Positions 9,579 through 53,500 of a DNA stretch of 64,000 nucleotides are shown piece by piece. This DNA comes from Desulfovibrio sp. (GTDB taxonomy: Bacteria; Desulfobacterota; Desulfovibrionia; Desulfovibrionales; Desulfovibrionaceae). Numbering within the stretch: the stretch's first letter is position 1; the number at the start of each line of letters is the position of its first letter. Below the pieces are notes generated by a model that saw only the letters and a list, made by a program, of their open reading frames with translations, made no database searches and was not told the origin of the DNA. Both the position numbers and the translations under genes were made by a program. The stretch lies in NCBI RefSeq assembly GCF_018379785.1, contig NZ_JAGZUV010000011.1:17788-81787 (forward strand), written 5' to 3'.

Positions 9579-9601
9579 TCCGTTGCCGGACGAAACGAGG
9601 C

Positions 9602-33939: not shown

Positions 33940-34045
33940 GGATTCCTCCAAAATAAAGTTTTACTGTTTGCACCAGTTGCTGACGTGCTCCATAAAAAGA
34001 GGTCCCTTCACGCACCCTTCTCCACGCCTTCCAATCACGTGAAAA

Positions 34046-34075
34046 TGTAACAATAGGGTACACCCTATTGTTACA
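34046..34075. other. 30-bp palindromic candidate recombinase crossover site A (TGTAACAATAGGG-TACA-CCCTATTGTTACA)
   Basis: 13-bp perfect inverted arms around an asymmetric 4-bp centre; 108 bp upstream of giant paralog 1 start and ~200 bp upstream of the serine recombinase gene. Confidence 0.55.
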
Positions 34076-34279
34076 AAATTAGGAATTCTATTTTATAATC
34101 AAATTATATACTATTTTTTCATTTTTTATGAAAAAACAAATAGAGTTAAAAGAAATTATACATAATACAAAAGATGAGATATACAAATGAAAAAGACAGC
34201 CTACTTCACATTGCATATCAAATGAGATGACAGAGCATCTCGTTATATCCTCATGGAATAACGCATGCAGGAGAAAACT

Positions 34280-34924
34280 ATGGATATAGGCTACATCAGG
34301 GTCAGCTCATATGATCAACATACAGACAGACAACTGGATGGAGTCCATCTTGAAAAGATATATACGGATATGATCAGCGGCAAAGACACGAACAGACCTG
34401 AGTTGCAGAAGTGCCTTACGGCGTTGCAGCGTGGTGATACACTACATGTCCACAGCATCGACAGATTGACGAGAAATTTGCAGGATCTGCTTCTGCTGCT
34501 TTCGGAAATGGCCGAAAGGGGCGTCACAGTGCGGTTTCACAAAGAAAAACTGACTTTTTCAAGCGACAGCTCACCCTTTCAAAAACTGCACCTACAGATT
34601 ATCGGCGCTGTGGCTGAATTCGAACGGGCTTTCATCCGTGAGCGCCAGCGGGAAGGCATTGCCATTGCCAAGGCGAAGGGTAAATATAAAGGGCGCAAGC
34701 GTGCGCTTTCAGCGGAGCAACTGGAAGAAATTTCCCGGCGCATTGCAAGAGAGTCCGTGAGCCGCATCGCGGAGGAATATGGGGTGTCCCGCCAGACCAT
34801 CTACAGGTCGCTGCGCCAGAACGAGGAAGGCGGCATGCGCTCCGTCCGGGATTCCCGGAAAGGCTGTACGGGCCTGCGCCATGAAGCCCCGTGGCATGAT
34901 CGGGAGCGACGAACCCATACCTGA
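34280..34924 (+). CDS. serine recombinase (resolvase/DNA-invertase family)
   Basis: MDIGYIRVSSYDQHTDRQLD...GDTLHVHSIDRLTRNLQDLL... catalytic Ser motif and C-terminal HTH (GVSRQTIYR); AGGAG RBS; gene GC clearly lower than surroundings. Confidence 0.85.
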   Translation: MDIGYIRVSSYDQHTDRQLDGVHLEKIYTDMISGKDTNRPELQKCLTALQRGDTLHVHSIDRLTRNLQDLLLLLSEMAERGVTVRFHKEKLTFSSDSSPFQKLHLQIIGAVAEFERAFIRERQREGIAIAKAKGKYKGRKRALSAEQLEEISRRIARESVSRIAEEYGVSRQTIYRSLRQNEEGGMRSVRDSRKGCTGLRHEAPWHDRERRTHT

Positions 34925-35313
34925 ACGGGATGAGGAATCAGCCTTAAAGAAAAAGTTGACAAATTCATACCGGAGGGTTATTGCTGGGACGTCTTTGAGC
35001 GGTGTCTCATAGAGGTGTACCCCATTAAAACTCGATAAGGCGTTTTGGCGTTCACCTCGGCGGCCGCATTTTTTCTTATTGCTGCCGGATTCCCGTAAAA
35101 GACATTCTCCGGGCGTTTGCATGACGCCGGGCGCTTCCCGGTTCAATACACGAGCATGAGCACGAAAGTCCGGCATGAGTCCTTCTGTCGGACAGGGCAT
35201 TCGCAATGAATGCCGCATGGAATTGATAAATAAGTAGGAAACGAAAGTTTTCTAGTCTGTTGAGGCCGAATCTGGAAAGATTTCGGCCACTAAGTGTTTG
35301 TGTAATTTCCCTC

Positions 35314-35342
35314 TGGACAAAGCCTGCCCCTGAAATTATAGT
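35314..35342 (+). promoter_or_regulatory. candidate sigma70 promoter for the T1SS operon (TGGACA-17-TATAGT)
   Basis: tggaca 35314, 17-bp spacer, tatagt 35337; ~125 bp upstream of ABC gene start. Confidence 0.45.
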
Positions 35343-35466
35343 CTGCGCCGTATTGAACCCCCAACGGCGTCACCGCTCGTTTCGCCGCGCCCGTCGGCCA
35401 TGGAAAGGCATTCTCTCCTTCCGTGCTTCTTTTCCTGTGCCCGGCGGCTAAGGAAAGTGCCTCTTC

Positions 35467-37242
35467 ATGCAAGATTTTCTGCGCTCGTGCCGGTATTTCT
35501 TCGGATATGCCTTCTTCTTCAGCATGTTCGTCAATATTCTGCAGCTGACATTTTCCATCTACATGCTGCAGGTTTATGACAAAGTGCTGACCAGCTACAA
35601 TCTTTCGACACTGACGGTCATCACCATCGCCGCCGTCATCGCGCTGGTGGTCATGGCTTTGCTGGAGTGGATCCGTTCGCGCCTGCTGGTACGGGCCGGC
35701 ATTGAGTTCGACCACATGCTCAGCCGCGACGTGCTGAAGCTGAATCTGCAAAACGCGGGAGCGCCTGCCGGCAAACCTGCCGAGCAGAACGGCAATTTGC
35801 GCGACGTGCAGAGCCTGCGCAATTTTCTGGGCGGCAACGCGGTATTCGCGTTTTTCGACGTGCCCTGGATGCCCATCTATTTCGCCCTGATTTTCATCCT
35901 GCATCCTTCCCTGGGCATGGTGGCTGTGGGAGGCGGCCTGCTGGTCCTGATTCTGGGCGTCCTCACCGAGCGGCTGACCCGCAAGCGTCTGGAAGCGGCA
36001 AGCCATCTCAATGCCCATTCCTTCAATCTTACCGGCGCGGCCATGCGCAACGCCAGCATCGTGCGCTCCATGGGCATGATCGGCAATGTCACGGCGCGCT
36101 GGGGCAAGGTCAACGACCTGATCATCCGACTCCAGACGCGGGCCAGCCGCAGCGCGGGCCTGATCCACGCGGTCAGCAAATCCCTGCGGGTCGGCCTGCA
36201 AGTGCTGATCTACGCCGTGGGCGCGTATCTGACGGTCATGCACGAATCCACGGCCGGGGTCATGATCGCCGCGTCCATCGTCATGGGCCGCGCGCTCGCG
36301 CCCATTGATCAGGCCATGGGCAGCTACAAGCAGTCCCTGGAAGCCCGGGGAGCCTATGGCCGCCTGAAGACCCTGCTCGACGCCCCGCGCCCCCTCCCGG
36401 CCATGGACCTGCCGGAACCGCAGGGCGAGCTGACCGCCGAAAATCTCTATTTCGCCGCCGGGGGACGGCCCATCCTCAAGGGGATATCCTTCCGCATGCC
36501 CGCCGGGCAGTCCCTGGCCATTATCGGCCCCAGCGCTGCGGGCAAGTCCACCCTCTGCAAACTGCTGTTGAACATCTGGGAGCCCACCAGCGGCAAAGTG
36601 CGCATCGACCGCGCGGATATGGCTTCCTGGGATTCGGAAAAGCTCGGCCCTTTTCTCGGCTATCTGCCGCAGGATGTGGAACTGTTTTCCGGCAGCGTGG
36701 CGGAAAATATCGCCCGGCTCGGCGAGGTGGATTCCGCCAGGGTCATCAAGGCGGCCCGGATGGCGGGCGTGCATGAAATGATTCTGGCCCTGCCCAAAGG
36801 CTACGACACCCAGATTGGCGACCAGGGCGCGGCCCTTTCCGGCGGACAGCGCCAGCGCATCGGTCTGGCGCGCGCCCTGTACGGCGATCCGCGCGTCATC
36901 GTGCTGGACGAGCCCAACTCCAATCTGGACGAAGAGGGCGAGGCCTCGCTGGCGCAGGCCGTGCTGCATCTCAAGCAACAGCACACCACTCTGATTCTGG
37001 TAACCCACAAGCCCAATATCCTTTCCATTGTGGACAACATCATGATGGTGCAGGACGGGCAGATCGCCCTGTGCGGGGCGCGCCAGGAAGTGCTGGCCAA
37101 GCTGGCGGAGCTCCAGAAACAGCAGCGCGAGGAAGCGGCCAGAGCCAGACTGTTGCGGGAGGCGCTGGAAAGGCGCAAGGCCGTCTCGCCGGAAAATCCC
37201 GATGAACCGCAAAGCGGCGACGGGGAGCCTGAACATGCGTAA
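35467..37242 (+). CDS. type I secretion system ABC transporter (permease/ATPase, HlyB/PrtD family, no C39 peptidase domain)
   Basis: 591 aa, 6 TM then Walker A GPSAAGKST, signature LSGGQRQRIGLARAL, Walker B VIVLDEPNSNLD. Confidence 0.9.
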   Translation: MQDFLRSCRYFFGYAFFFSMFVNILQLTFSIYMLQVYDKVLTSYNLSTLTVITIAAVIALVVMALLEWIRSRLLVRAGIEFDHMLSRDVLKLNLQNAGAPAGKPAEQNGNLRDVQSLRNFLGGNAVFAFFDVPWMPIYFALIFILHPSLGMVAVGGGLLVLILGVLTERLTRKRLEAASHLNAHSFNLTGAAMRNASIVRSMGMIGNVTARWGKVNDLIIRLQTRASRSAGLIHAVSKSLRVGLQVLIYAVGAYLTVMHESTAGVMIAASIVMGRALAPIDQAMGSYKQSLEARGAYGRLKTLLDAPRPLPAMDLPEPQGELTAENLYFAAGGRPILKGISFRMPAGQSLAIIGPSAAGKSTLCKLLLNIWEPTSGKVRIDRADMASWDSEKLGPFLGYLPQDVELFSGSVAENIARLGEVDSARVIKAARMAGVHEMILALPKGYDTQIGDQGAALSGGQRQRIGLARALYGDPRVIVLDEPNSNLDEEGEASLAQAVLHLKQQHTTLILVTHKPNILSIVDNIMMVQDGQIALCGARQEVLAKLAELQKQQREEAARARLLREALERRKAVSPENPDEPQSGDGEPEHA

Positions 37243-38620
37243 GCAACTGAGCAGGGCCCTGGCCGTCATTGAAACCAGCGTCATCAAGCCCATCGTCAGC
37301 GCCGCGGAAAAACGCCAGGCCGCCAAGGGCGAAAATGTGGAAGACCCCCGCCGCATCATCCGCCAGGGACTTCTGGTGGTGGGTCTTTTCTTCGGGGCGC
37401 TGGGAATCTGGTCGGTTTTCGGCCACATCAGCGGGGCCGTGGTGGCGCCGGGCAAAATCAAGATCGAAACGGAACGCAAAACCGTACAGCATCTTGAAGG
37501 CGGCATTGTGGACGCCATTCTGGTGCGCGAAGGCGAGGAAGTGGCGGCGGGCCAGCCTCTCATCCTGTTGGAATCGGTGCAGATCGACGCCAGCGCCAGC
37601 ATGCTGCAAAAGCAGCTTGTGGCCCAGCTGGCCGCCGGAATCCGGTTGGCCGCCGAAAAGGATCTCAAAGAGGAACTGCACTGGCCCGACGATCTGCGCC
37701 GCATGGCCGAAGAGCGCCACAGCCTCGATGTGCTGGACAACGAGGCCAAAATTTTCGCCGCCCGGCGGGAGGCTCTCAACGCGCAGGTTTCCCTGCTGAA
37801 TACCCAGCTTGCACAGCTGGACGCCCAGGTGGCCGGTTTTGACGATCAGGTCAAGGCCGAGCAGGCCATTATCGGCACGCTTAATGAAGAACTGCGCGCC
37901 AAGCGGCAGCTCTACAATGAGCGCTATCTGGAAAAATCGCAGATTCTGGAGCTGGAACGCACCCTGGCCAGCCATCAGGGCAACCGGGGACGCCTCAAAC
38001 AGTCCATCGCCGAGGCCAAACAGCGGGCCGCCGAGCTGCATCTGCGCATCGAAGACGTGAAAGTGCGCTTTGTGGAAGAAGCCACCAGCTCCCTCGGCAA
38101 GCTTGAAAACGACATCATCCAGACCCGCGAGCGCCTCCGCCCGCTCAAAGACGCAAAAAGGCGCCTGCAGATCGTGGCTCCGGTGGGCGGGCGCGTGGTG
38201 GATCTCAAGGTGCATTCCAAGGGCGGAGTCGTGCGTCCGGGCGAGCCGCTCATGGACATCGTGCCCCACGACAATCCCCTGATTGTGGAAACCCATGTGC
38301 CGGTCAACAAGATCACGGAAGTCCACATCGGACAGGATGCCCTGGTGCAGCTCGACGCCTTTGACACGCGCCTTACCCCGCACATGCCCGCCAAAGTCAC
38401 CTACATCTCGGCTGACCGTCTGGAAGAGCGCACCGGCGCGGGCGTGATGCCCTATTACCTTTGTTATGTGGAAATCGATCCCAGAGCCCTGAAAGACGCC
38501 AAGCTCTATCTTTCGCCGGGCATGCCCGCCACGGTTTTCATCACCACCCAACAGCGCACGGTCCTTTATTATATGATGGAGCCGCTGCTCAAAAACTGGG
38601 ACAGAGCGTTGAGGGAGTGA
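37235..38620 (+). CDS. type I secretion membrane fusion protein (HlyD family)
   Basis: MRKQLSRALAVIE..., single N-terminal TM, long coiled-coil, C-terminal beta domain; start overlaps ABC stop. Confidence 0.85.
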   Translation: MRKQLSRALAVIETSVIKPIVSAAEKRQAAKGENVEDPRRIIRQGLLVVGLFFGALGIWSVFGHISGAVVAPGKIKIETERKTVQHLEGGIVDAILVREGEEVAAGQPLILLESVQIDASASMLQKQLVAQLAAGIRLAAEKDLKEELHWPDDLRRMAEERHSLDVLDNEAKIFAARREALNAQVSLLNTQLAQLDAQVAGFDDQVKAEQAIIGTLNEELRAKRQLYNERYLEKSQILELERTLASHQGNRGRLKQSIAEAKQRAAELHLRIEDVKVRFVEEATSSLGKLENDIIQTRERLRPLKDAKRRLQIVAPVGGRVVDLKVHSKGGVVRPGEPLMDIVPHDNPLIVETHVPVNKITEVHIGQDALVQLDAFDTRLTPHMPAKVTYISADRLEERTGAGVMPYYLCYVEIDPRALKDAKLYLSPGMPATVFITTQQRTVLYYMMEPLLKNWDRALRE

Positions 38621-38622
38621 GC

Positions 38623-39558
38623 ATGCGCCGGATTCTTGCAGTTTTCCTCCTGTGGGCGGCAACGGTTATTCCCCAGACCTCACAGGCCGCCGTTGCCGCC
38701 CTTTCCGGCCATGCCCCGTTGCGGGCGGCCAGCCTGTATACGGGCGGGGAGCACGCCGGCGGCGGGGAACAGCGGGTGGAACTCTATCTGCTGGACGGCA
38801 ACTTTTTCGTCCTGCGCCAGATTGCCGCGCCCAGAGGCAAAAAAGCCGTTACGCGGGACATGACCGGCTTCTGGCGGCAGGTGGACGACGGATTTCCGCA
38901 CAGCCTGGCGCTGAAAAAATCCCCGTTCCGCAAGCCGTCCTTCAGCGTCATGGGCAGGCTGGATCGTATTGCGGGCCGCGCGGCACTGACCGACAGCGCC
39001 ACGGGGCGGGTGTTCGCGCCCGCTGAAGGCGAGGCGCTGGCGGCTCTGCCCGGGAAGGATTCCCTCTTTGTGGATGCGGTGATCCTGCCCGCAAAAAACG
39101 GCTGTGCCGTCCAGCGCATCCGGAGTTTTTCCACCCGTTTTCCGTCACAGGCCGGGTCCGCCCCGACAGACGGGGACTTTGCCGCCAGAGTGGCGGGCGA
39201 AGTCTGGCTTCTACCTTCCCTGCCGGGTCTGCCCGCCGCCTCCTGCGTTTTCAGCGAGCGGGGCAAAGGGCAGGGCGCACTGGAAGTGACCGGGCCGGGC
39301 CTGCGGCTGACGGCGGACTATGTCCTGCGCGGGCCGGGCCTGACCTTCTCCGTCAGGAAGGAGGACGCCCGCATGCTGGAAGCCTGCGGGGCGGAGGTTC
39401 TGCCGCGCATGCTGGCCTCCGTGCGTTCATGGTCGCTGGAAGGCGGGGCGCTGACGCTCACCTCCGCCGACGGACAGAGCTTTCTGCTGGAAAAAGCCGC
39501 GCCGGATCGCCGGGCCGGAAGCGGACGCGCCGCCGCGCCCAAAGGATATAAGAGATGA
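38623..39558 (+). CDS. hypothetical secreted/periplasmic protein encoded inside the T1SS operon
   Basis: 311 aa, signal peptide MRRILAVFLLWAATVIPQTSQAA; translationally coupled to MFP (3-nt gap) and TolC (4-nt overlap). Confidence 0.6.
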   Translation: MRRILAVFLLWAATVIPQTSQAAVAALSGHAPLRAASLYTGGEHAGGGEQRVELYLLDGNFFVLRQIAAPRGKKAVTRDMTGFWRQVDDGFPHSLALKKSPFRKPSFSVMGRLDRIAGRAALTDSATGRVFAPAEGEALAALPGKDSLFVDAVILPAKNGCAVQRIRSFSTRFPSQAGSAPTDGDFAARVAGEVWLLPSLPGLPAASCVFSERGKGQGALEVTGPGLRLTADYVLRGPGLTFSVRKEDARMLEACGAEVLPRMLASVRSWSLEGGALTLTSADGQSFLLEKAAPDRRAGSGRAAAPKGYKR

Positions 39559-40892
39559 ACACAGGTTGCCGTCTTTTTTGGTTCCGTCTTCTTCTGCTGC
39601 TCTGCCTCGCGCTGCCGCTCCGGGAACCGGATGCTCCGCGCGCCGCGGAAATCTTCACCATGGAGCAGGCCGTGGCCCGTGCCATGCAGGCCAATCCCGG
39701 CGTGGAGGCGAAAATGCTGCTGCTGGAACAGGCCCGGCTGAACGTGGGCGTGGCCCAGAGTTATTTCTGGCCGCGCGTTTCCCTGGTGGGCACCAGCAGC
39801 CGCGTCCAGAACTACGAGGAAGTGCAGACCTACAACAGCGACAACCTCACCAGCGACAACTGGTCCAAAGGTCTGCGGGCCTCGCTGTCCCTGTTCGCCG
39901 GTTTCGCCCATCTGAACAATCTGCAGAAATCCCGCATCGCGGTGGAGGTGGAAAAAGCCCGCCACCGGCAGGCCCGTCTGGAACTGGGCAGCAATGTGCA
40001 GCTTCAGTTTCTGCAACTGCTCAAATGCCGCGAGGATCTCAAAAGCGCGGAAGAAGCCGTGGCCCGCATTGAAACCCAGCTCAAGGCCGCAGAGGCCTTC
40101 GTCAAAGTGGGCATGGCCCCCTATGTCAATGTGCTCCAGAACCGAACCGAGCTTTCCAGCGCCCGGCAGCAGGTCATCCGCGTCAACAACGACATCCGCA
40201 ACGCGGAAGTGCAGCTCAACAGATATCTGGGATTTTCTCCGGACCGCCCCGTGCGCTATGCCGGCAATCTCAAAAATTTCTCCAGCACCGTCGGATACAC
40301 GGAAGAGGAAGCCGTCGCAGCGGCCATACGGCAGCGGCCTGACCTGACCATGGCCCGGAAGTCGGTGGAGGTGGCCTACAAGGACATGCACATCGCCATG
40401 GGACAGTACCTGCCCCGCGTGGACGCCACCTACGACAATATGAGCTCCAGCAAGGAATACGACGACAAACGCTATCAGGGCTACACCCGCAACTACTGGG
40501 CTGCAGGGCTGAATTTCTCCTGGGAAATCTTTTCCGGCGGCGAAACAACCTTTTCCACCCTGGCTGACCGCAAAAAGGCCCAATCCCTGCAAAAAGACTA
40601 CGAAGACGCCATGTCCGGCGCGCGCGCCGACGTGATCCGCTCACTGCTGGACATCAAGGCCGCCAGGGAACTTATCGCTGCCTCCCGCCAAGGCATGGAC
40701 GCAGCCCGCGAAAGCTACGCCATGGCCAACAAACGCTACATGACCAATACCGGCACCATCACCGAACTGCTGGACGCCCAGCTCAAGCTGACCCAGGCCG
40801 AAAACGACGCCAGCCGCGCCCTGACCGAATACCACAGCGCGCGTGTCCGCTTCTTTTACCATATCGGGCGCGAGAACCCAGGACTGAGGTAA
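39555..40892 (+). CDS. TolC-family outer-membrane efflux protein (T1SS outer membrane component)
   Basis: 445 aa, signal peptide, two-repeat TolC architecture (..SYFWPRVSLVGTSS.. / ..QYLPRVDATYD..). Confidence 0.85.
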   Translation: MNTGCRLFWFRLLLLLCLALPLREPDAPRAAEIFTMEQAVARAMQANPGVEAKMLLLEQARLNVGVAQSYFWPRVSLVGTSSRVQNYEEVQTYNSDNLTSDNWSKGLRASLSLFAGFAHLNNLQKSRIAVEVEKARHRQARLELGSNVQLQFLQLLKCREDLKSAEEAVARIETQLKAAEAFVKVGMAPYVNVLQNRTELSSARQQVIRVNNDIRNAEVQLNRYLGFSPDRPVRYAGNLKNFSSTVGYTEEEAVAAAIRQRPDLTMARKSVEVAYKDMHIAMGQYLPRVDATYDNMSSSKEYDDKRYQGYTRNYWAAGLNFSWEIFSGGETTFSTLADRKKAQSLQKDYEDAMSGARADVIRSLLDIKAARELIAASRQGMDAARESYAMANKRYMTNTGTITELLDAQLKLTQAENDASRALTEYHSARVRFFYHIGRENPGLR

Positions 40893-40902
40893 GGGGCGAC
40901 AT

Positions 40903-43407: not shown

Positions 43408-43420
43408 GGCAAACAAAATC

Positions 43421-46399
43421 ATGTTTCACAGATATCTTGCCGCTGCCCTGCTTTTGCCCGCCTCGTTCGCGGTTCACGGTTCCCTGCGGGTCTGGCTGAA
43501 GACCATCCGGATGGGGAAACACGCATTCTTTTCCCAGGTGATAAAAAAGGGATCCGCGCAGATCAGCCGCCCGGACTCCTTCGCGCGCGCCCTGCTGGTC
43601 TATTATCCCATGAAGACGGGCATGGAGATCCTGCACGCCGGCAGCCTGCTGCCCGTGTTGAAAAAGGCCTGGCGGATCACACGACTGCGGCTTGCGGGCA
43701 GCGTGGCAACGCGCCCGGACCCGTTGGATACCTGGAGCGACAGACGGCCGCCCTTTGTGCCGCCAGAGCACATTTTGGCGATGATCCGCGACCCCGACGT
43801 CAAAACCGTCAGCTTTGACGTCTTTGATACCTTGCTGCTGCGCCCCGCGCTGCAGCCCAAGGACATCTTCCATCTGCTGGCCCGAAAAGTGGACGCCGCC
43901 CACGGCGTGGACTTTATCAAACTGCGTTGGAATGCCGAAGCGGAACTGGGAAAAGCCAACGCCGACATCCATCATATCTACGCCCACATAGTCCGGCGGC
44001 ATAAGCTGGACCCCGCCACGGCGGAAGCACTGCTGGCGGAGGAAATCCATTGCGAGACAACGCTGCTCTCTCCCAGGCCGGACGTCGAAGACCTGTATCG
44101 GGAGGCCGTGCGCCTTGGGAAACGAGTCATAGCCGTTTCAGACATGTACCTGCCCGGAACCGTTCTGGACGATATTCTGAAAAAGAAAGGCTGCGGGATG
44201 GACGCTGTGTATGTTTCCTGCGACCATGATGCGCGCAAAAGCGACGGCGCGCTGTATGATGTCGTCCTGAGCAGTGAGAAAACCCTTCCTTCGGAAATTC
44301 TGCATGTGGGCGACAACTACCAATCCGATTACGTCCAGGCCGTTCAGAAGAACATCAGCGCGGTCTGGCTTCCTTCCATTCAAACGTTGTGCTTCTCCAA
44401 CGAGGCGGTCCGCGAGGCTCTTTTCGGCAAAGCCGTGCGCCGGGAACCTCTCTGGAGCATTTTTCTGGGTCTCAGCCTGAACAGGCTTTACGGCGGAGGT
44501 TGCCGAACTCCCGAGCATATTGCGGAGTTGAAGGACATTCGGCAGTTTGCGGAGCTGACGCTCGCCCCTCTGGTCACGGCCTTCGGCCTTTTTCTTGCCA
44601 CGGCCAGGGACATTCAGCAGGCCTACAAATCCATCCACTTCGCTTCCCGTGACGGCTGGCTGCCCCACAAGGTGTACACCTTGGTCCGGGATTGTCTGGG
44701 AGGCGTGCCGGGCGTCTACTTTCATGCGGGCCGCCGCGCTTACTACCCTTTTCTGCACGACACCTTTTTTGACTTCGCGGCCTCGCTGAGTCAGGCCGCC
44801 AACATGGAAACATATACTCTGCAGGATTTCCTGGAGGCCTGGTTCAAGGATGAGGACCTGCTCGACCGCCTGGGGAAAGGTCTTTCCCCGGCGGAAGCGG
44901 CTCTGCCTTTCTTCCTCCGCAAGGTCGAATGCCTGCGAATCCTGCGGCGTTTTGAAAAAGAGATCGCGGACTGCATGTGCGCAAAGCGGACCAGAGCGCA
45001 GGCTTATTATGACAGAGTTTTCGACTCGTCGGAAAAGCGGCATCTGGTGTTTGACCTGGGATACTCCGGCAGTATCGGCAAAGCTCTTGCCGCTGTCACG
45101 GGAAAACCGGTGGACAAAATATATTTCTGGGAAGAACCGGAAAACAGGGCGCTCGACCGGACATCCGGCTCAACGACGCGTCTTTTCATGAAAGACGGAG
45201 CCTATGTTCCCTATCACCTGGTGCTGGAGGAACTCTTCTCACCTTGTGAAGGCGGTGTCACCGGCTTTGACGCCCAGGGAAATCCCGTGCTTGAAAGCCT
45301 GACCGGCAGTCATGCGCATGAAGAGGATCTGGCCGCCGCGCACGCGGCCTGCCTTGAATACGCCGAACAATTTTGCGCGATACTGGGAGAATACGCCCAA
45401 TATGCCGTGCCGCACGCCCCCGGAGCGGCCATGGACGTTTTCCGAGCCCTGCTGAACGACGCTCCCTTCTGCAACGCGGGCGTGTTCAAAAACATCGTTT
45501 TTCCGGACCCGGTCTACAGAAGAAGCGCCAATTCCCTGGAAAAGAAACTGGAAATCCATCTGCCCTGCCCGACGGTTTTCTCGGGCACCGGCTTCAACAA
45601 TCCGCGCAAGACCTTCGTCAGCCGCTCCCGCCCGCGCGGCGGCTGCCGGATCGGCATGCATCTGCATCTGTACCATGCGGGCGTGGCGCATGAGATCATA
45701 CGTTATCTGCAGGACTTCCCCGCGCCTTTCGACCTCCATATCACCATTACGGACGCGTCGTTCGCGGCCACCGCGCGAAACCTGTTCAGCCGGGCTTTCC
45801 TTCCCCTGGTCCGGGAAGTGCGCGTGCTCACTGTGCCCAACCGCGGCAGGGACGTGGCTCCTTGGGTGCTGGGCATGCGTCCGTACCAGGCAGGGTATGA
45901 TCTCTTTTGCCATATCCACAGCAAGGAATCGGCGCATATCGGTTTCGGGGACGAGTGGCGGGCCTATCTCTTCGACAATCTGATCAGATCCGACAGCGTT
46001 GCGGAAATCATCAGCAGTTTCGAGAACGATCCGGGCCTGGGCTGCCTCTTTCCGGCCATTCATCCCAAGGTGCGGCAGGTCATGACCGGCGTAGGAGCTC
46101 CGCTGTACGGTTCCGAACATGAGTATGCCGTCATTTGCGACATGCTGCGCAGAATGAAGCTGGGCGGGGAAATCTGCCGGTCAGAGCTTTTTTTCTCCGT
46201 GGGCACCATGCTCTGGTATCGTCCGCATGCCCTCCGGCAGCTCTTCGCCTGCGAACTGCACCTTGAAGAGTTCGCGGCCGAACCCATAGGCGTGGGCGGA
46301 ACCCTGGCCCACGCCCTGGAACGCCTGCCCGCCCTGATTGCTGTGCGCAACGGCTATACAGCCCAAAGTCTGACCCGCCATGCCGCGTTTCCGGCATAG
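43421..46399 (+). CDS. HAD-like hydrolase domain fused to rhamnan-synthesis-protein-F (RgpF)-like glycosyltransferase domain
   Basis: 992 aa from MFHRYLAAALLLPASFA...; HAD motif VSFDVFDTLLLR; C-terminal LHLYHAGVAHEI...FDLHITITD...YDLFCHIHSKES resembles RgpF family; start chosen inside ORF 43016..46399. Confidence 0.6.
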   Translation: MFHRYLAAALLLPASFAVHGSLRVWLKTIRMGKHAFFSQVIKKGSAQISRPDSFARALLVYYPMKTGMEILHAGSLLPVLKKAWRITRLRLAGSVATRPDPLDTWSDRRPPFVPPEHILAMIRDPDVKTVSFDVFDTLLLRPALQPKDIFHLLARKVDAAHGVDFIKLRWNAEAELGKANADIHHIYAHIVRRHKLDPATAEALLAEEIHCETTLLSPRPDVEDLYREAVRLGKRVIAVSDMYLPGTVLDDILKKKGCGMDAVYVSCDHDARKSDGALYDVVLSSEKTLPSEILHVGDNYQSDYVQAVQKNISAVWLPSIQTLCFSNEAVREALFGKAVRREPLWSIFLGLSLNRLYGGGCRTPEHIAELKDIRQFAELTLAPLVTAFGLFLATARDIQQAYKSIHFASRDGWLPHKVYTLVRDCLGGVPGVYFHAGRRAYYPFLHDTFFDFAASLSQAANMETYTLQDFLEAWFKDEDLLDRLGKGLSPAEAALPFFLRKVECLRILRRFEKEIADCMCAKRTRAQAYYDRVFDSSEKRHLVFDLGYSGSIGKALAAVTGKPVDKIYFWEEPENRALDRTSGSTTRLFMKDGAYVPYHLVLEELFSPCEGGVTGFDAQGNPVLESLTGSHAHEEDLAAAHAACLEYAEQFCAILGEYAQYAVPHAPGAAMDVFRALLNDAPFCNAGVFKNIVFPDPVYRRSANSLEKKLEIHLPCPTVFSGTGFNNPRKTFVSRSRPRGGCRIGMHLHLYHAGVAHEIIRYLQDFPAPFDLHITITDASFAATARNLFSRAFLPLVREVRVLTVPNRGRDVAPWVLGMRPYQAGYDLFCHIHSKESAHIGFGDEWRAYLFDNLIRSDSVAEIISSFENDPGLGCLFPAIHPKVRQVMTGVGAPLYGSEHEYAVICDMLRRMKLGGEICRSELFFSVGTMLWYRPHALRQLFACELHLEEFAAEPIGVGGTLAHALERLPALIAVRNGYTAQSLTRHAAFPA

Positions 46400-46456
46400 G
46401 CCGGAAACGCGGCATGGCACAACGGCCAGGCGGATAAAAATCTGGAGAGTACCCCC

Positions 46457-47278
46457 TTGTTCCGACTTCTCGACATCCTTGCCGCACCACGCCTGCTGTG
46501 GTGTCACAAAAGCTTATTCCGGCAACTGCTTGTCAGAAACATCAGCACCCGCTATCGCGGCTCAGTACTGGGGCTGATCTGGAGTTTCGCCTATCCTCTG
46601 ATGATGCTGGCGGTCTACACCTTTGTTTTCGGCATCATCTTCAAGGCGCGCTGGGGCGTTGAAACGCTGGACGAAAACAGGGCAGCCTTTCCTCTGATCA
46701 TGTTCTGCGGCCTTGCAGTGTTCAATCTCTTTTCCGAAAGCGTCAATGCCAGCGGCAGTCTTATTGTGAATAATGTCAGCTTCGTCAAAAAGGTCATCTT
46801 TCCTCTGGAGCTGTTGCCCATATGCACAGTGGCCACAGCATTTTTCTTCGGCGCTGCCTGGTTCAGCCTGCTTCTACTGGGAGCCTGCATTTTTCTGCAA
46901 TCCCTGTCATGGACGATGCTGCTTCTCCCTCTGACCCTTGTGCCTCTGCTGCTGTTCACCACAGGGGCGGTATTCGTCATCGCGGCCTTTGGAGCGTATC
47001 TGCGGGATGTGCCCCAGCTTGTGGGCGTGGCGACGCAGATTCTCTTTTTCATGACGCCCATTTTTTACCCGGTTTCTCTGGTACCCGAGCGCCTGCGCTG
47101 GCTGCTGAATCTGAACCCTTTGACGCCCGTGGTGGAGGAAACCCGCAAGCTCTTTCTCTACGGGCAGGAGCCCGACTATATGGTCTGTTTGTGGCTGTTT
47201 CTCTTTTCTCTAGCGGTATTCCAGACCGGCTTTGTCTGTTTCAGCAAAATGAAGAAAGGATTCGCGGATGTGCTCTGA
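46457..47278 (+). CDS. wzm: ABC-2 type polysaccharide exporter permease (Wzm/KpsM-like)
   Basis: 273 aa, ...FRQLLVRNISTRYRGSVLGLIWSFAYPLMML... 6 TM. Confidence 0.85.
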   Translation: MFRLLDILAAPRLLWCHKSLFRQLLVRNISTRYRGSVLGLIWSFAYPLMMLAVYTFVFGIIFKARWGVETLDENRAAFPLIMFCGLAVFNLFSESVNASGSLIVNNVSFVKKVIFPLELLPICTVATAFFFGAAWFSLLLLGACIFLQSLSWTMLLLPLTLVPLLLFTTGAVFVIAAFGAYLRDVPQLVGVATQILFFMTPIFYPVSLVPERLRWLLNLNPLTPVVEETRKLFLYGQEPDYMVCLWLFLFSLAVFQTGFVCFSKMKKGFADVL

Positions 47279-48635
47279 TGCCGAAGCCGTCATTCGCGTG
47301 AGCGACATTGCCAAATTCTTCGAGATATACTCCAAGCCGTCGTATCGTCTCTGGCAGATGATATTCCGGGGCAGACGGCGTTTTTATGAGCCGTTCTGGG
47401 CGCTGCGGGACATTTCCTTCACTGTGGGGCGCGGAGAGTGCGTGGGAGTTATCGGCCGCAACGGCGCGGGCAAAAGCACGCTGCTCCAGATCATTACCGG
47501 CACGCTCGCCGCTTCATCGGGATGCGTCGACGTGAAAGGCCGTGTGGCCGCCCTCCTGGAACTGGGCAGCGGCTTCAACCCCGAATTCACGGGCCGCGAG
47601 AACGTCTACCTCAATGCCTCCATCCTCGGCCTGACGCGGGAAGAAACAGACTCCCGCTACGACGACATCGTGGCCTTTGCGGACATCGGCGACTTCATCG
47701 ACCAGCCGGTCAAAAGCTACTCCAGCGGCATGGTGGTGCGCCTGGCCTTTGCCGTGGTGGCCCATGTGGACGCTGACGTGCTGATCATCGACGAGGCCCT
47801 GTCTGTAGGCGATGCCTTTTTCACGCAGAAATGCATGCGCTTCCTGCGCCGCTTCATTGCCGAGCGCACCGCGCTTTTCGTCAGCCATGACACTGCCGCC
47901 GTAAACAGCCTGTGCAACAGGGCCATCCTCATGGAACACGGGCGGATAAAGCAGATGGGCAGACCCAAGGACGTGACGGAAACCTATCTGAAAGATATGT
48001 ATGAAGCGCACCAAGGCTCCAGTGCCCCCGTCGTCGAAACATCAGGGGCGACTCCGGCGGAGAAAGACGCGGAGGACAGGGCGCGCGCCTTCACGCCCGA
48101 GGATTTCCGCGACATGCGCGCGGACCTCATCAATGCCAGCAACTTGCGCAATGACATTCAGGTCTTCGTCTTCAACGAACGCAGCGCCGACTTTGGCAAA
48201 AAGGGCGTCACCATCACCGGAGCCGCCCTCCTGGACGGCAGGGGACGCCCACTGAACTGGGTGGTCGGCGGCGAACCCGTGTCTCTGCAAATCACCGTGC
48301 GGGCACACAAGGACATCTTCAGCCCCATTATCGGTTTTTTTCTCAAAAATCGTCTCGGGCAACATATCTTCGGGGACAATACCTTTCTGGCCTACCGGGA
48401 AAAACCCGTGTTGCTGCGCCGGGGGCAAAGCGCTCGTGCGCTTTTTTCCTTCGTCATGCCCATCCTCGAAACCGGAGACTACAGCTTTTCCATTGCCGTG
48501 GCAGAAGGCACGCAAGTAGAACATATCCAGCATGACTGGAAGCACGACGCCCTGGTTCTGAAATCGGTCACCACCAGTTGTCATACGGGCATGGTGGGCA
48601 TCCCCATGCAGTGCATCAGCCTCAACGTCATCTAG
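47268..48635 (+). CDS. wzt: polysaccharide ABC transporter ATP-binding protein (Wzt-like) with C-terminal carbohydrate-binding extension
   Basis: 455 aa, Walker A GRNGAGKST, signature YSSGMVVRLAFA, ~190-aa C-terminal extra domain. Confidence 0.85.
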   Translation: MCSDAEAVIRVSDIAKFFEIYSKPSYRLWQMIFRGRRRFYEPFWALRDISFTVGRGECVGVIGRNGAGKSTLLQIITGTLAASSGCVDVKGRVAALLELGSGFNPEFTGRENVYLNASILGLTREETDSRYDDIVAFADIGDFIDQPVKSYSSGMVVRLAFAVVAHVDADVLIIDEALSVGDAFFTQKCMRFLRRFIAERTALFVSHDTAAVNSLCNRAILMEHGRIKQMGRPKDVTETYLKDMYEAHQGSSAPVVETSGATPAEKDAEDRARAFTPEDFRDMRADLINASNLRNDIQVFVFNERSADFGKKGVTITGAALLDGRGRPLNWVVGGEPVSLQITVRAHKDIFSPIIGFFLKNRLGQHIFGDNTFLAYREKPVLLRRGQSARALFSFVMPILETGDYSFSIAVAEGTQVEHIQHDWKHDALVLKSVTTSCHTGMVGIPMQCISLNVI

Positions 48636-48643
48636 GAGCCGTC

Positions 48644-49516
48644 ATGGAGTTCACAGGAGAACGTTTTGTCCCCCAATGCCAGGGAGAAATTGCGGCCGAA
48701 CACTACCATCGCTATTTTTTCGCTTCGGGTTTCGTCTCCGGCAAGCGCGTCCTGGATATCGCCTCCGGTGAAGGCTACGGTACGCATATTCTGGCGCAAT
48801 CCGCCGCGCACGTCACCGGCGTGGACATTTCCCCGGAAGCCGTGGCCAACGCCACCCAAAAATACGCCGGAGACAGGATCGCCTTCCTTCAGGGCAGCGC
48901 GGCCGTCATTCCCCTGCCCGACGACGCCGTGGACGTGGTAGTCAGTTTTGAAACGCTGGAGCACCTGTGCGAGCAGGAAGCTATGCTCAGCGAAATCAGA
49001 CGTGTTTTACGGCAGGACGGCCTGCTGATCATCTCCACGCCCAACAAGAATCTGTACAGGCGCGACAATGATCGCTTCCATGTCAGGGAGTTGTTCCGGA
49101 AGGAATTCGTTGACCTGCTCAAAAACCGCTTCGCCCATGTTTCCCTGTTGGGGCAGAAGGTCATGTACGGTTCACTGCTGAGCGGCACGGACGGCGAGAC
49201 CTTACTGCTCCGCCAACGGGAAGAAGACGGCGCTGTGGAGCGTATGCCTTTTACGGAACAGGCCAGATATTTCATAGCCCTTGCCGCTAACGGACCGCTG
49301 CCGCCCACTCAGAGTTCGTTTTTCGACTACCCTCTGGAAAAAAGCGATCTGACGGCGCAACTCGCAGAACTGCAAGAACGCCATAACGCGGCGCAAGCGC
49401 GCCTTGAGGCCGTGGAAGCGGCATACACCGCCGTCCTTGCCTCGCGCTCGTGGCGCGCCACGGCGCCGCTGCGTCGCCTGCGGCATCTTCTCAAGGGGAA
49501 ACGGAGCAAAAGCTGA
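48644..49516 (+). CDS. class I SAM-dependent methyltransferase with C-terminal coiled-coil
   Basis: MEFTGERFVP...VLDIASGEGYGTHIL...GVDIS... motif I; AGGAG RBS; C-terminal heptad-like ...LTAQLAELQERHNAAQARLEAVEAAY... Confidence 0.75.
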   Translation: MEFTGERFVPQCQGEIAAEHYHRYFFASGFVSGKRVLDIASGEGYGTHILAQSAAHVTGVDISPEAVANATQKYAGDRIAFLQGSAAVIPLPDDAVDVVVSFETLEHLCEQEAMLSEIRRVLRQDGLLIISTPNKNLYRRDNDRFHVRELFRKEFVDLLKNRFAHVSLLGQKVMYGSLLSGTDGETLLLRQREEDGAVERMPFTEQARYFIALAANGPLPPTQSSFFDYPLEKSDLTAQLAELQERHNAAQARLEAVEAAYTAVLASRSWRATAPLRRLRHLLKGKRSKS

Positions 49517-49555
49517 ATCTGAAACGCCCCGGTGGGGACAATGAGGAGAACATGC

Positions 49556-50110
49556 ATGGAAGTGGAACGCACCGCCATTGACGGCGTCATCATCATAAAA
49601 CCGGACGTGCACGGCGACGCACGCGGCTTTTTTGTGGAAACCTGGCAGCGGGACCGCTATGCCGACATGGGCATTGCCATGCCTTTTGTGCAGGACAATC
49701 ATTCCCGTTCCTCGCGAGGCATTTTGCGGGGCATGCACTTTCAGCGCAAACACCCGCAGGGCAAGCTCGTCCACGTTTCCCTGGGCGCGATCTTTGACGT
49801 GGTGGTAGACATCCGCCCCCATTCGCCCACCTTCGGGCAGTGGACCGGCGTGACACTGGACGCGGGACAGCAGCATCAGCTCTGGCTTCCCCCGGGCATG
49901 GCGCACGGTTTTCTCGCCTTGAGCGACACCGTGCATCTGCACTACAAATGCACGGATTTTTACCACCCCCAGGATGAAGGCTCTCTCCGGTGGGATGATC
50001 CCGACATCGGTATCGCCTGGCCATGCACCGCGCCCATGCTTTCCGTCAAGGACGCCGCCGCACCCTTCTGGCGCGAGGTACGGCAATCCCTTCCGGCGCG
50101 GACGCGCTGA
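49556..50110 (+). CDS. rfbC: dTDP-4-dehydrorhamnose 3,5-epimerase
   Basis: MEVERTAIDGVIIIKPDVHGDARGFFVETWQ...GMHFQ... canonical RmlC. Confidence 0.9.
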   Translation: MEVERTAIDGVIIIKPDVHGDARGFFVETWQRDRYADMGIAMPFVQDNHSRSSRGILRGMHFQRKHPQGKLVHVSLGAIFDVVVDIRPHSPTFGQWTGVTLDAGQQHQLWLPPGMAHGFLALSDTVHLHYKCTDFYHPQDEGSLRWDDPDIGIAWPCTAPMLSVKDAAAPFWREVRQSLPARTR

Positions 50111-50350
50111 ACAGTTTCCTGACGGCGTTCCGCCCGGAGCGCCGTCGCCAGGGCGGTTTACTCTTTGAACGGTAAACGGCCCTGAAGAAACCCTGGATTA
50201 CCCGCACATATTGGGGCCCTGACCCTCAAGCCCTCAAGGGGCTGTCTTCAAGACATCTCTGTTTCCTCCCGCCACACAGCATCTCATCTGCCGCCGCCAG
50301 TTGAACCGCTTTCTCCACATCATTTCCTTCCTGTCGTCGCTACCGAACGC

Positions 50351-50380
50351 CTCACCAATAAAGTGTACCCTATTGTTACA
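50351..50380. other. candidate recombinase crossover site B (..GTGTACCCTATTGTTACA), inverted relative to site A
   Basis: 50363..50388 gtgtaccctattgttacatttttacg matches the reverse strand of site A (gtgtaccctattgttacattttcacg) at 25/26 positions; 139 bp upstream of giant paralog 2 start. Confidence 0.55.
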
Positions 50381-50518
50381 TTTTTACGGACATCTTGTGT
50401 GTGGCTGAAGCTAAGGAAGGCTGGGCTTCAGGCTGAGCACCATGCGATTATCTGTCTAGGATTATTGTAAAAATGAGAAGTTAGGCTTCTCGACTTTTAA
50501 CTCTCTGGAGGAAAACAC

Positions 50519-53500
50519 ATGGCTGTTGAAATTCCTACTTGGTTTGAGGAAAAAAATTATCTCAATAATAAAGCGGTGCAGTTGAACGCCACCAAGTTCA
50601 ACGACAAAACCGATTGGACTGCGGATTCGGCGTTGGCCGCCATTGAAGCCGCGGGCATGAGCGCCTACGAGCATTTCGTCGCCTACGGCAATGTCGAAAA
50701 CATCAGCCCCAATCCCATGTTCAACGTGGCGGAATACCTCGCGGCCAAGGCGGCACAGCTCAACAGCGACCCTGACGAGCCAAAATCCGACTGGACCGAG
50801 GCCGACGTACTGGCGGCATTCAACGACGCCGGTCTGACTGCTTGGGATCATTACACACAATACGGCATGTATGAAGGGATCAACCCCTCCAATCAATTTG
50901 ACGCCAGCGCCTACTTCACAGCCAAGCTGGCGCAGCTTCAGGCTGCCGAGCCGGATAAGGGCTGGACAGAAGAATCCATGCTGGACGCCTTTAAGGAAGC
51001 GGGTCTCAACCCCTTGGAACATTATGCCCAGTACGGCAAGGATGAAGGCCTTTCCGTTCCCCCGGTGCCGTCCGACGAACGGGTCGTCACGGATTTTGAT
51101 CCCTACACTCCTTCCAATCCGGGCGAAACTTTCACCCTGACCACCGGCACCGACCACATTACGGGCACGGCCAACGACGACGTGGTCAACGGCGTGGCCT
51201 CCTCCCTGACCGCCGACCGCACCCTGAACAGCGAAGACGTCATCGACGGCGCGGAAGGCAACGACACTCTGAATGTGGCCATGCAGGGCAATTTCTCCGG
51301 CTTCACCACCGGCTCCATGACCAACGTGGAAAAAGTGGTGCTGACCAACGAAGGCAACATCGCCCGCAGCTTCTCGGCCAAGGGCATTGACGGTGTGAAT
51401 ACCTGGACCCTGAACGACACGGGCGCGGCCGTCAACCTTACCGACCTTTCCGCCGCGGGCGCCACCGTCAATGTGCAGGGTCTCAAGGCGGGCCCGACCA
51501 GCATCGGTTTTACTGCTGACGCCGTAAAGGGCGACAACGACTCGCTGACCCTGGGCCTCAACAATGTGGGCACCGCCAAAGACGGCGACACAGCCGCCAA
51601 GCATGTGGCCATTACCGCCAACGGCATTGAAAATCTGGCCGTGAAGGCCACGGACGACAACTATGTGGATCTGAGCGCCGCCGCTTCTAAAACCGTAACC
51701 GTCTCCGGCTCCGGCAATCTGGATGTCAACAATGTAGCGGCGGGTATGACCAGCTTCGACACTTCGGCCCTCAGCGGCAATGTGACGGCTGATCTGCACG
51801 CAGCCACCGGGCTGGCGATCGTCAAGGGAGGTTCCGGCGACGACACCATTACGGTAACCAACCTTGCCGCCAACGCCGTTATTGAAGGCGGAGCCGGCAA
51901 TGACAGCCTGATCCTGCAAGGCGTCACCAGTACTCTGCAACCCACCATGTCCGGTTTTGAGAATATTACGGCTGATGGCGGCACGCTCACCCTTTCCGGC
52001 AAAAACATGTCCGATTTCAATTCTCTGACCGTGAAGAATGGTGCGCAGGTGACTTTGGCCAATATGGACGCCTCTGCCTTTACCGTCACCGCGTCGGGTT
52101 CTACGGCTGGTTCCGTTTTGTTGAGCGACGCCACCGCGCTTACCTACAATACGGTAAGCAGCAAGACCGACAAAACCTCGGACAGCATCAGCACCACAGT
52201 GACCGCCTCCAAGGCCACCTCGGCCACGGTCAACGTGGGCGAATACACCGAGGTGAACGGGACGCTGAACTTTGGCGCGGCTGTGGATGTGGCCGTGAAT
52301 GTGGCCAGCGGTCTGGGCAGCGACGGCAAGACCGAAATGACCTCTTTTGGCGGTACCCTGACCGCGAACAAAGCCCAGAGTTTTACCGTTAATGCGGAAG
52401 GTCTGCTGGAGGTTTCCACCTTCAATGTGGACGCGGCCAGTTCCGTGCTGGTGGATGCCGCCCAGGGCAGCACGGGCGTGGTAAAAATTCAGGCGAGCAA
52501 GGCCACTGACGTGAGCATTACCGCCGGCTCGGCTATGGCTATCACCGGCAGCTCTTTCTCCAGCGCCCAGAACGTGACCCTGGCCGCGAACAAAGGGCAT
52601 CTCTCCGGCGGCGTGGCACTGGACGCCGTCAACCAGCTCACCCTTTCCGGCGCGGATGCGGCCTCGCAGATGACGCTGGGTGTTCTGGGCTCTTCCACAC
52701 AGGAATACGGCATCACAGTGGACGCCAGCGGCCTGAAAGGCGGGTTGGTACTGGGTAATACTGACGCCGGAACCGGTGATGTGGCCTTGAATCTCGTCGA
52801 CGTGACGGGTGCCGCCGTTGTCGGTACGGTGGACGGCAACAATGTGACCATCCACGCCGCCCAGCTCGGCACGACCACTCTGGGCGCCATTACCGCTACC
52901 GGAGATGTGAACATTGACGCCATGGGCGTGTTGGGCGGCAATGCGGCAGCCGCTGCCTTTACAGCAGGCGCTATTGTTGCCGACAAGGCCATCACGGTGA
53001 ACTTCGACGGCAGCAGCGATATGGCCTTCGGCGCGCTGACTGCCGACACCGTGAACCTGGACGCATCCGGCTATCTGGGTGCCATCACTAACAGCAACGG
53101 CGCCGTCGTTGATGCAGCCATCGGCATGATTACGGCGGATACGGTCGTCATCAAGGGTTCAGAGATCGGCGCGAACACCTTTGGTTCCGCAGCCAATACG
53201 GACAACTTCATAACGGCCGATACCCTTACCTACACCGGCGGCCTGGATGTGGATACGGTATACCTTACCGGCAAGTCCGGCCCGGATATGAATGTGCGCC
53301 TCGACACCGGCGCGGGCAATGACATTGCGAGCCTTACCGCCATTAGCTCCACGACCAAAATCACGGTCACCGGCGATATGGGCGGCGACAACGGCGACGC
53401 GATTAAGGTGGACGGCTCTGCTTCCACCAACGAGATCAACATCAATCTCAGCGGCCTGACCGGTTACAGCACGAGCGACCTCTCCGCAAAAGCTGCCGGC

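Follow-up and report, generated by a model that had tools for sequence, protein, structure and literature searches.

A probable three-site serine-invertase switch between two giant, putative surface proteins of a Desulfovibrio sp.

Can a Desulfovibrio sp. change, by rearranging its DNA, which of two giant proteins it makes? The question is raised by a 64,000-nt stretch of contig NZ_JAGZUV010000011.1 (assembly GCF_018379785.1; the whole stretch is hereafter the window), in which two divergently oriented giant genes, P1 and P2, flank a block of type I secretion system (T1SS) and glycan genes, with the gene for a small serine recombinase at the P1 end of the block. The original prediction, made from the sequence, held that this recombinase inverts a 16.3-kb segment between two near-identical sites, A and B, one upstream of each giant gene. 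That A and B are crossover sites proved right; a third site, C, and a nested 0.96-kb cassette had been overlooked. In our assessment the locus is, with high probability, a programmed three-site invertase switch, and it very probably allows the bacterium to switch between giant surface proteins.

Rearranged junctions and the crossover sites

We looked up public assemblies with the exact recombinase protein and scanned metagenomes with the 21-mer core of the sites. The search for both orientations in other assemblies, which the original prediction had proposed, returned 34 junction-spanning contigs, 31 of them standard and three (L001, L129 and L126) rearranged. The rearranged contigs, all of the window's species, came from three human-gut samples and two strain backgrounds, recognizable by TTTTCACG or CTTTCACG flanks. 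L001, a 53-kb contig from a k=141 assembly (sample ERZ27271781), runs from the reversed right flank (S13, S11, S4, rpoA, L17 and onward) through a P2 allele into the recombinase end of the segment. At its junction, the reverse complement of window 50356..53454, which holds the P2 allele, is joined to 34038 onward; the flank of B on the P2 side leads into the inner arm of A, with the change of partner inside the 22-bp core AAAATGTAACAATAGGGTACAC. L129 joins window 49615..50388 (rmlC and the inner arm of B) to 34070..30474 (the outer arm of A and P1) and is the reciprocal product of the L001 junction. Both reciprocal junctions of the predicted 16.3-kb inversion thus occur in natural populations, with the switch inside the core that A and B share.

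The third rearranged contig brings in site C. L126 consists of the reverse complement of 35567..35009, followed by 34057..35026 and 50363..53454, giving the order reversed ATP-binding cassette (ABC) exporter gene, hybrid site, recombinase cassette, hybrid site, P2. One hybrid site combines the reverse complement of the outer arm of C with the inner arm of A (GGTTTTAATGAGGT-AC-ACCCTATTGTTACA) and the other the inner arm of C with the outer arm of B (TGTCTCATAGAGGT-GT-ACCCTATTGTTACA); the partner changes lie within GGTACACC and GTGTACCC, 7 shared bp that include the central AC. Because L126 carries both C hybrid sites, site C recombines, and the contig requires a second inversion, at C. We rejected a deletion between B and C, which are in direct orientation, as the origin of L126; it is ruled out by the left junction, where the hybrid of C and A is joined to the ABC gene, the mark of a double inversion. 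In all of these events the crossover interval sits at the dyad centre and includes the central AC, spanning 22 bp for A × B and 7–8 bp for events with C.

The junction contigs are unlikely to be chimeras, since the repeats (22–26 bp) are far below the k=141 used for L001. Two further contigs end at the sites: Logan contig L015 starts at 50363, the first base common to A and B, and contig OMGS01000454.1 (L130) ends at 35021, within site C. Such ends match the assembly-graph branch that mixed orientations would give. A group of ~1.4-kb recombinase contigs (L026–L034) was rejected as a rearrangement; these follow the window collinearly, and the 'gene' annotated on the minus strand at their end is spurious.

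The sites themselves have the form that a serine invertase would need (coordinates of all features are given in Table 1). Site A is a perfect palindrome, as originally described; 14-bp arms around an asymmetric 2-bp AC are preferred over the earlier reading of 13-bp arms around a TACA centre. On re-reading, the stretch 50363..50388 (GTGTACCCTATTGTTACATTTTTACG) matches the reverse strand of site A plus flank at 25 of 26 positions, in agreement with the identity and inverted geometry first reported for site B, and a 22-bp core is common to A and B in inverted orientation. The outer arm of B is perfect and its inner arm (CTCACCAATAAAGT) degenerate (9 of 14 positions). Site A is inverted relative to B and C, which are in direct orientation to each other, and each of the three is intergenic. 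A lies 106 bp from the P1 ATG and B 138 bp from the P2 ATG, both upstream, in line with the ~110–140 bp given earlier, and the recombinase gene, 204 bp from A and 78 bp from C, falls within both invertible segments. Identity between the upstream regions of P1 and P2 is limited to an island of ~32 bp, with no convincing alignment of the flanks on either side. As a separate observation, eight bases (TTTTYACG) beyond the arm, on the gene side, are conserved at both giant genes.

These sequences are specific to the locus. The 14-mer half-site occurs three times in the 64 kb, against 0.08 occurrences expected, and no shuffle gave three. A dyad-site matrix picked out A, B and C in the window and nothing else; the matrix was trained on these sites themselves, and its evidence concerns specificity only. 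Its arm scores were 4.9 for the inner arm of B, 13.5 for the outer arm of C and ~16 for good arms. The 21-mer core is not a dispersed repeat, because all 12 of its 12 matches in the metagenome scan were at this locus; the genome-wide repeat that would have undermined the original prediction was therefore not seen.

The recombinase gene encodes a DNA-invertase-like protein with a Resolvase domain (PF00239, E 1.9e-36) and an HTH_7 domain (PF02796, E 2.3e-08). Its best match in the Protein Data Bank (PDB) is the Gin DNA invertase (1e-29), with which it aligns end to end, S9 on S9; the Sin, Tn3 and gamma-delta resolvases follow at ~1e-19. Residues of the catalytic domain, R7, S9, D61, R62 and R65 among them, are invariant over 23 recombinase homologues. 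The protein is 97% identical to its counterpart in GCA_022834915.1 and is not a member of the Mpi family (model NF009949: 62.5 bits against a cut-off of 272). The GC content is 0.35 at 34000–34399 and ~0.60 around it, and the description of a low-GC serine recombinase gene just inside site A was accurate. From its adjacency to the sites, and from the co-variation of sites and enzyme across species, we infer that this recombinase runs the inversion. The –35 (GTTACA) of the promoter-like match ahead of the recombinase gene (34070..34099) is the end of the inner arm of A; because of this overlap, site-bound recombinase could repress its own gene, by analogy with resolvases at res. In a scan of genome contigs with the recombinase alignment, the matches listed were mostly generic resolvase or invertase homologues at 50–60% identity from unrelated phyla; the window's own species was not among them, and L043 was the one informative match listed. 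One homologue at 70% identity (P0041) lies in a cobalamin-gene context, so it was rejected as part of this system.

Homologues of the recombinase with 64–77% identity stand beside a T1SS operon in six further Desulfovibrionaceae lineages (L035–L042, L043, L136, L137, L138 and L139), with the same T1SS gene order in all. A giant gene is present on the other side in four of the six (L035, L043, L137 and L139), the contigs of L136 and L138 ending before that point. Both flanking sites were found in five (L035, L043, L137, L138 and L139), and L136 shows one site before its contig ends; in L035 the arms form a perfect 20-nt inverted repeat around the recombinase gene alone, with 774 nt between them. 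Counting the window species, a dyad site with a T-AC-A centre is present in seven of seven lineages. The site sequences vary by species, but all are dyads centred on T-AC-A, and the arm on the recombinase-3' side is always of the TGTCTCA type. In the L136 assembly the recombinase gene points away from the T1SS operon, as it does in the flipped orientation; the 3' site is clear, and the 1 kb separating the ABC and recombinase genes (8946..10000) showed no second dyad site; the partner may be degenerate or may lie elsewhere. The orientation of the window predominates in the assemblies of most lineages. Because flanking site pairs around the recombinase recur in these relatives, we conclude that the ancestral unit is a Hin-like cassette of ~1 kb, to which the window species has added a third site before a second giant gene.

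The switch that we propose would work as follows. One serine recombinase would act on A, C and B, dyad sites of ~30 bp with a common T-AC-A centre. Recombination of A with C would flip the 0.96-kb cassette with the recombinase gene and its promoters, and recombination of a P1-side with a P2-side site would flip the 16.3-kb block, made up of the cassette, the T1SS genes and the glycan genes. Nested inversions of this kind would yield four states: S1, as in the window; S2, with the cassette flipped; S3, with the block flipped; and S4, with both flipped. Three of the four arrangements were observed, namely S1 (window), S3 (L001 and L129) and S4 (L126).

Promoters and competing interpretations

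How such inversions would set expression depends on which promoter moves. Between the recombinase gene and site C lies a candidate outward promoter of sigma-70 type, P_out. Its TTGACA recurs unchanged in five species, always at the same distance from the 3' site, and 16–18 bp further on comes a –10-like hexamer; the DNA between the recombinase stop codon and the 3' site is otherwise unalignable across species. TTGACA is also found in L138. The T1SS operon has a promoter-like element of its own outside the cassette, with a –35 (CT(G/T)GACA) kept in five species and a –10 (TATAGT) in the window, L035 and L043. With the T1SS operon thus provided for, the movable promoter would likeliest drive the giant gene that it faces. 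In the scan, the DNA from each outer arm to the ATG of the adjoining giant gene gave no sigma-70-like match. We therefore lean, with modest confidence and on comparative sequence evidence, towards the 3' promoter as the one that matters in assigning states to genes. It would drive P1 in S2 and P2 in S4; in S1 and S3 it would be parked, facing the T1SS operon. A single large inversion, between S2 and S4, would then be enough to replace one expressed surface protein by the other, and the small inversion would serve as an on/off control.

The original prediction had given the key promoter role to the AT-rich region upstream of the recombinase gene; instead, the best-conserved element is the TTGACA on the 3' side. 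Because of this position, and of the T1SS operon's own promoter, the ON/OFF assignment is uncertain and may be the reverse of what had been assumed. Read-through from the glycan operon into P2, the other route suggested earlier, has become less likely because a terminator-like hairpin stands behind rmlC, in an interval (50111..50518) that had been described as having no obvious terminator.

The same three-site system could also operate with the AT-rich 5' region as the surface-gene promoter, in which case S1 would have P1 on, S3 would have P2 on, and S2 and S4 would be lowered or silent; we regard this as possible, if rather unlikely. The consensus scan gave two matches in the 5' spacer. On the minus strand, TTCATA(34132..34127)-18-TATAAT(34108..34103), matching at 10 of 12 positions, reads out across site A towards P1, and L137 has a comparable TTCACA-17-TACAAT in its own AT-rich spacer; the plus-strand match, GTTACA(34070..34075)-18-TATAAT(34094..34099), is directed at the recombinase gene, and part of it falls in the inner arm of A. 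The predominance of S1-type orientation would suit an abundant surface protein that is normally ON. Against this assignment, the AT-rich spacers of the window and L137 show no convincing alignment, the spacers of L035 and L043 are short and GC-rich (125 and 84 bp) with no minus-strand promoter match in the scan of their cassettes, and the invariant 3' TTGACA would be left without a role. The transcript would, moreover, run through what looks like a terminator. Read towards P1 or P2 (34038..34075, minus strand; L001 9759..9800), the palindrome with its TTTT(C/T)ACG extension forms a 13-bp hairpin (–18.6 and –22.5 kcal/mol) followed by UUUU(C/U). The hybrid site of S2 folds like shuffled sequence (–7.9 kcal/mol), and that of S4 folds otherwise, without the 13-bp hairpin.

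The hairpin could account for the eight bases conserved beyond the arm at both genes. We rejected the palindrome and U-tract as a general terminator of such loci; it is confined to this species, the sites of L035 and L137 being too little palindromic. Returning to the 3' promoter, we tentatively suggest a fuller picture in which a movable, Hin-like promoter is subject to two levels of control: the 0.96-kb inversion would park or point it, and the 16.3-kb inversion, with the secretion machinery and the glycan-anchor pathway as cargo, would choose its target. ON/OFF control would thereby be combined with antigenic choice, the palindrome might, wherever the 5' end of the cassette faces a surface gene, serve as an orientation-dependent regulatory RNA element, a terminator that insulates the silent gene, and the whole would be a site-specific, convergent counterpart of the system of Campylobacter fetus.

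Several observations weigh against the switch as we describe it. S2, with the cassette alone flipped, was not found among the 34 junction-spanning contigs. All promoters named here are consensus matches only; the –10 of P_out in the window (TATTGC) is weak, with three of six positions, and fails the consensus scan, and the window and L137 carry a good outward match on the AT-rich side. If S1 is OFF, a costly and clearly diversifying surface protein would be switched off in almost every gut population sampled, which is possible but not obviously to be expected. The surface or S-layer (surface layer) nature of the giant proteins is likewise indirect, with no family, sequence or fold match, and another enzyme may act on the sites in trans. 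Lastly, only three of the 34 junction contigs are rearranged, and the orientations differ between samples, in a comparison made across contigs and not within one clone; these could be rare events fixed in some strains.

This last point can be extended to an account in which the inversions are rare and essentially irreversible, fixed in few strains, and the cassette is domesticated or a decaying remnant. The low count, a mixture seen between samples and not within one, and the degenerate inner arm of B and outer arm of C would all agree with it. We nevertheless consider it improbable. Rearrangement occurred in two strain backgrounds and L126 takes two successive events; contigs end exactly at B and C; a 26-bp island has been kept identical within upstream regions that otherwise show no convincing alignment; and recombinase, sites and outward promoter are kept across several lineages.

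RecA-dependent homologous recombination in the manner of C. fetus, in place of the serine recombinase, is suggested by the layout, with opposed surface genes around T1SS genes and a SapC homologue, and the outer ~900-bp glycosyltransferase repeats do appear to undergo homologous exchange (L003 and L025, below). It is nonetheless very improbable as the cause of the inversions described here. The identity at the crossovers is too short for efficient RecA exchange, P1 and P2 have no 5' homology block at the DNA level, and the crossovers fall centrally in dyad sites on either side of a serine recombinase gene. Least credible is a coincidental recombinase next to a 26-bp regulator-binding or promoter element inherited by two paralogs and inverted through their divergence; this would explain the similar distances upstream of both genes and the extra TTTTYACG on the gene side of the arm, but not why L001, L129 and L126 change partner exactly in the motif, why a third copy lies behind the recombinase gene with no paralog adjoining, or why site pairs bracket the recombinase in species with one giant gene seen in the retrieved sequence.

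Giant proteins, cargo and outer neighbours

The two divergent giant genes are paralogous, as originally stated, through their N-terminal module: P1 and P2 share ~280 N-terminal residues at 34% identity, with no common DNA block. P1 has a pI (isoelectric point) of 4.05, 2 Cys and three N-terminal repeats of ~55 aa; across the giant proteins we found a pI of 4.05, 0–2 Cys, no signal peptide and three such repeats at the start. Comparison with Pfam, NCBIfam and PDB sequences gave no match, and homologues carried no informative name. The N-terminal 200 aa of P2 were modelled (predicted local distance difference test, pLDDT, 95) as three repeats of three helices each, and the model had no solved structural relative. 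From genomic context and composition, P1 and P2 are probably type I-secreted, S-layer-like surface proteins.

The two genes differ in their variation among strains. P1 was 1173 aa in every strain seen. P2 alleles of 872, 918, 1134 and 1144 aa were present in other samples (L016–L024), with strong divergence between strains. The giant gene of a related species (L035–L041) encodes 1103 to 1230 aa.

Within the block, the T1SS genes are followed by glycan genes (Table 1). A 332–360-aa protein occupies the position of the conserved 344-aa protein in every related T1SS operon; we rejected the latter as a SapC paralog, as it is unrelated to the SapC gene beside P1. RmlC is encoded at 49556..50110 (plus strand); its open reading frame (ORF) of 192 aa is longer than the called gene, which begins 8 codons later (184 aa). 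Many short contigs from several samples (L005, L007, L029–L034 and the left end of L126) start or stop within ~34109..34165 and ~35518..35567. The left interval holds an A/T hairpin, TTTTTTCAT-TTTTT-ATGAAAAAA (34114..34136), and the right one lies in the 5' end of the ABC gene; strain divergence and sequencing bias are possible reasons for the clustering.

Outside the giant genes, a pair of GT2 glycosyltransferase genes forms an inverted repeat of ~900 bp around the whole locus, 91% identical here and 97% in L025. Within this repeat, L003 (4281..5189) shows a single change from right-copy to left-copy markers, to be read either as an outer inversion of ~26 kb through homologous recombination or as an assembly chimera. 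The left GT2 copy of L025 (4294..5211) contains a right-type conversion patch.

Table 1. Features of the invertible locus and its surroundings (window coordinates)
Feature	Coordinates	Strand	Details
Site A	34046..34075	.	TGTAACAATAGGGTACACCCTATTGTTACA = TGTAACAATAGGGT-AC-ACCCTATTGTTACA, perfect 30-bp palindrome; core AC 34060-34061; adjoins P1
Site B	50351..50380, plus flank to 50388	.	CTCACCAATAAAGT-GT-ACCCTATTGTTACA; core GT 50365-50366; outer flank TTTTTACG; adjoins P2
Site C	35003..35032	.	TGTCTCATAGAGGT-GT-ACCCCATTAAAACT; core GT 35017-35018; directly after recombinase gene
Small serine recombinase, DNA-invertase-like, 214 aa	34280..34924	+	Resolvase + HTH_7
AT-rich 5' spacer of cassette	34076..34279	.	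two promoter-like matches, 10/12 each (consensus scan)
P_out, candidate outward promoter	34956..34984	+	TTGACA(34956..34961)-17-TATTGC(34979..34984); in cassette 3' of recombinase gene; reads across C
T1SS operon promoter-like element	35314..35342	+	TGGACA-17-TATAGT; outside cassette
Giant paralog 1 (P1), 1173 aa	30418..33939	-	ORF; acidic, nearly Cys-free, no signal peptide
Giant paralog 2 (P2), 1134 aa	50519..53923	+	ORF; N-terminal module as in P1, rest unrelated
ABC exporter, PrtD-type	35467..37242	+	TIGR01842, 674 bits, above cut-off
HlyD-type adaptor	37202..38620	+	TIGR01843, 371 bits, above cut-off
Conserved 344-aa protein	38524..39558	+	no family match; between HlyD-type adaptor and TolC-like gene
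TolC-like channel	39555..40892	+	PF02321
Glycan cargo: GT4 glycosyltransferase, RgpF-like rhamnan synthase, Wzm/Wzt ABC exporter, methyltransferase, RmlC	40903..50110	+	Pfam
Terminator-like hairpin after rmlC	50141..50157
SapC-family gene	29513..30397	-	PF07277, E 1.3e-46; directly downstream of P1; called 248 aa in related contigs
GT2 glycosyltransferase, left copy of outer inverted repeat	28559..29476	-	PF00535
GT2 glycosyltransferase, right copy of outer inverted repeat	54036..54950	+	~900-bp repeat

Significance and comparison with known inversion systems

Desulfovibrionaceae are common hydrogen-sulfide producers of the human gut, and to our knowledge surface variation in this family is essentially undescribed; a literature search that did not extend to subscription journals found nothing on S-layer or surface-protein inversion in Desulfovibrio or its relatives. 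If our interpretation is correct, the locus would account for the way in which these bacteria alter or conceal a dominant surface antigen, a matter relevant to escape from phage, immunoglobulin A (IgA) and complement. At least seven gut Desulfovibrionaceae lineages combine recombinase and T1SS genes in this arrangement. The locus would also represent a second, mechanistically independent solution to the problem that C. fetus has solved, and a compact natural three-site, four-state serine-invertase circuit, with secretion and anchoring machinery among its cargo, of interest for the design of recombinase-based genetic memory. On the practical side, it would show that programmed 16-kb inversions with 30-bp sites, for which short-read inverton finders are not built, are recoverable from public metagenome assemblies by junction typing.

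The closest mechanistic relatives are the Hin/Gin invertases, which underlie flagellar phase variation in Salmonella and the tail-fibre switches of phages Mu, P1 and e14. Hin, Gin, Cin and Pin have in common with our system a small serine recombinase (~190–215 aa) with a C-terminal helix-turn-helix, Gin being its best solved relative, short inverted dyad sites with a 2-bp asymmetric core, and a recombinase gene within a segment of ~1 kb. In the Hin switch of Salmonella, the fljB promoter reads out of the recombinase-3' end of the segment, and P_out, 3' of the recombinase gene, similarly would read out across the distal site. A Fis-bound recombinational enhancer within the segment is a feature of Hin/Gin-type switches. 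The sites described here differ in being 30 bp long, with 14-bp arms and an AC core, whereas hix and gix are 26 bp and of different sequence. With a third site at a distance of 15 kb, the one enzyme could also invert a 16.3-kb secretion and glycan block, and the target would be a T1SS-secreted giant surface protein rather than flagellin or tail fibres.

More than two sites served by one recombinase, giving several arrangements, are known from Min of plasmid p15B and the R64 shufflon. Those systems shuffle C-terminal coding segments, whereas no coding sequence is recombined here.

The sap locus of C. fetus is closest in layout. It has a single promoter on an invertible segment of 6.2 kb, and recombination proceeds via the long conserved 5' regions of sapA homologues and is largely RecA-dependent. 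Opposed surface-protein paralogs flank a segment with the sapCDEF type I secretion genes (PMC4943207). In the window, P1 (minus) and P2 (plus) likewise flank ABC, HlyD and TolC genes, with a SapC-family gene beside P1, the giant proteins being putatively S-layer-like; in both systems, inversion of the segment changes the paralog next to one end. The resemblance to C. fetus, and the contrast of a dedicated recombinase, had been pointed out in the original prediction. The layout and SapC agree with the first part, and the second fits the absence of long homologous 5' regions and crossovers of 7–22 bp. In place of long homology there is a 22–26-bp site with no DNA homology block, a dedicated serine recombinase and a nested cassette, and two paralogs are seen here against about eight in C. 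fetus.

In Lactobacillus acidophilus, opposed active and silent S-layer genes are exchanged at a fixed expression site by inversion of the segment between them (Boot et al. 1996, cited via PMC3666127), and the alternative arrangement is rare in culture (0.3%; PMC3666127). That organism is Gram-positive, its S-layer protein is Sec-secreted and the segment is without secretion genes. The promoter there is fixed outside and the genes move to it, whereas here the promoter cassette would move; a neighbouring recombinase cassette is not mentioned in the text consulted (PMC3666127). A gut commensal, Bacteroides thetaiotaomicron, has an S-layer gene, BT1927, with an invertible promoter, short inverted repeats and adjoining site-specific recombinase genes (PMC4611039); a homologue of these recombinases, Tsr26, is cited among tyrosine site-specific recombinases (PMC4611039). 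The BT1927 element is a promoter-only segment of 256 bp with 22-bp repeats that turns one gene ON or OFF, with no paralog and no large cargo. Describing the present architecture as an undescribed design was therefore an overstatement: S-layer gene inversion is known in C. fetus and L. acidophilus, and Hin-type cassettes are classical. What would be new here is the three-site, four-state serine-invertase circuit, with its nested promoter cassette and its 16-kb secretion and glycan cargo.

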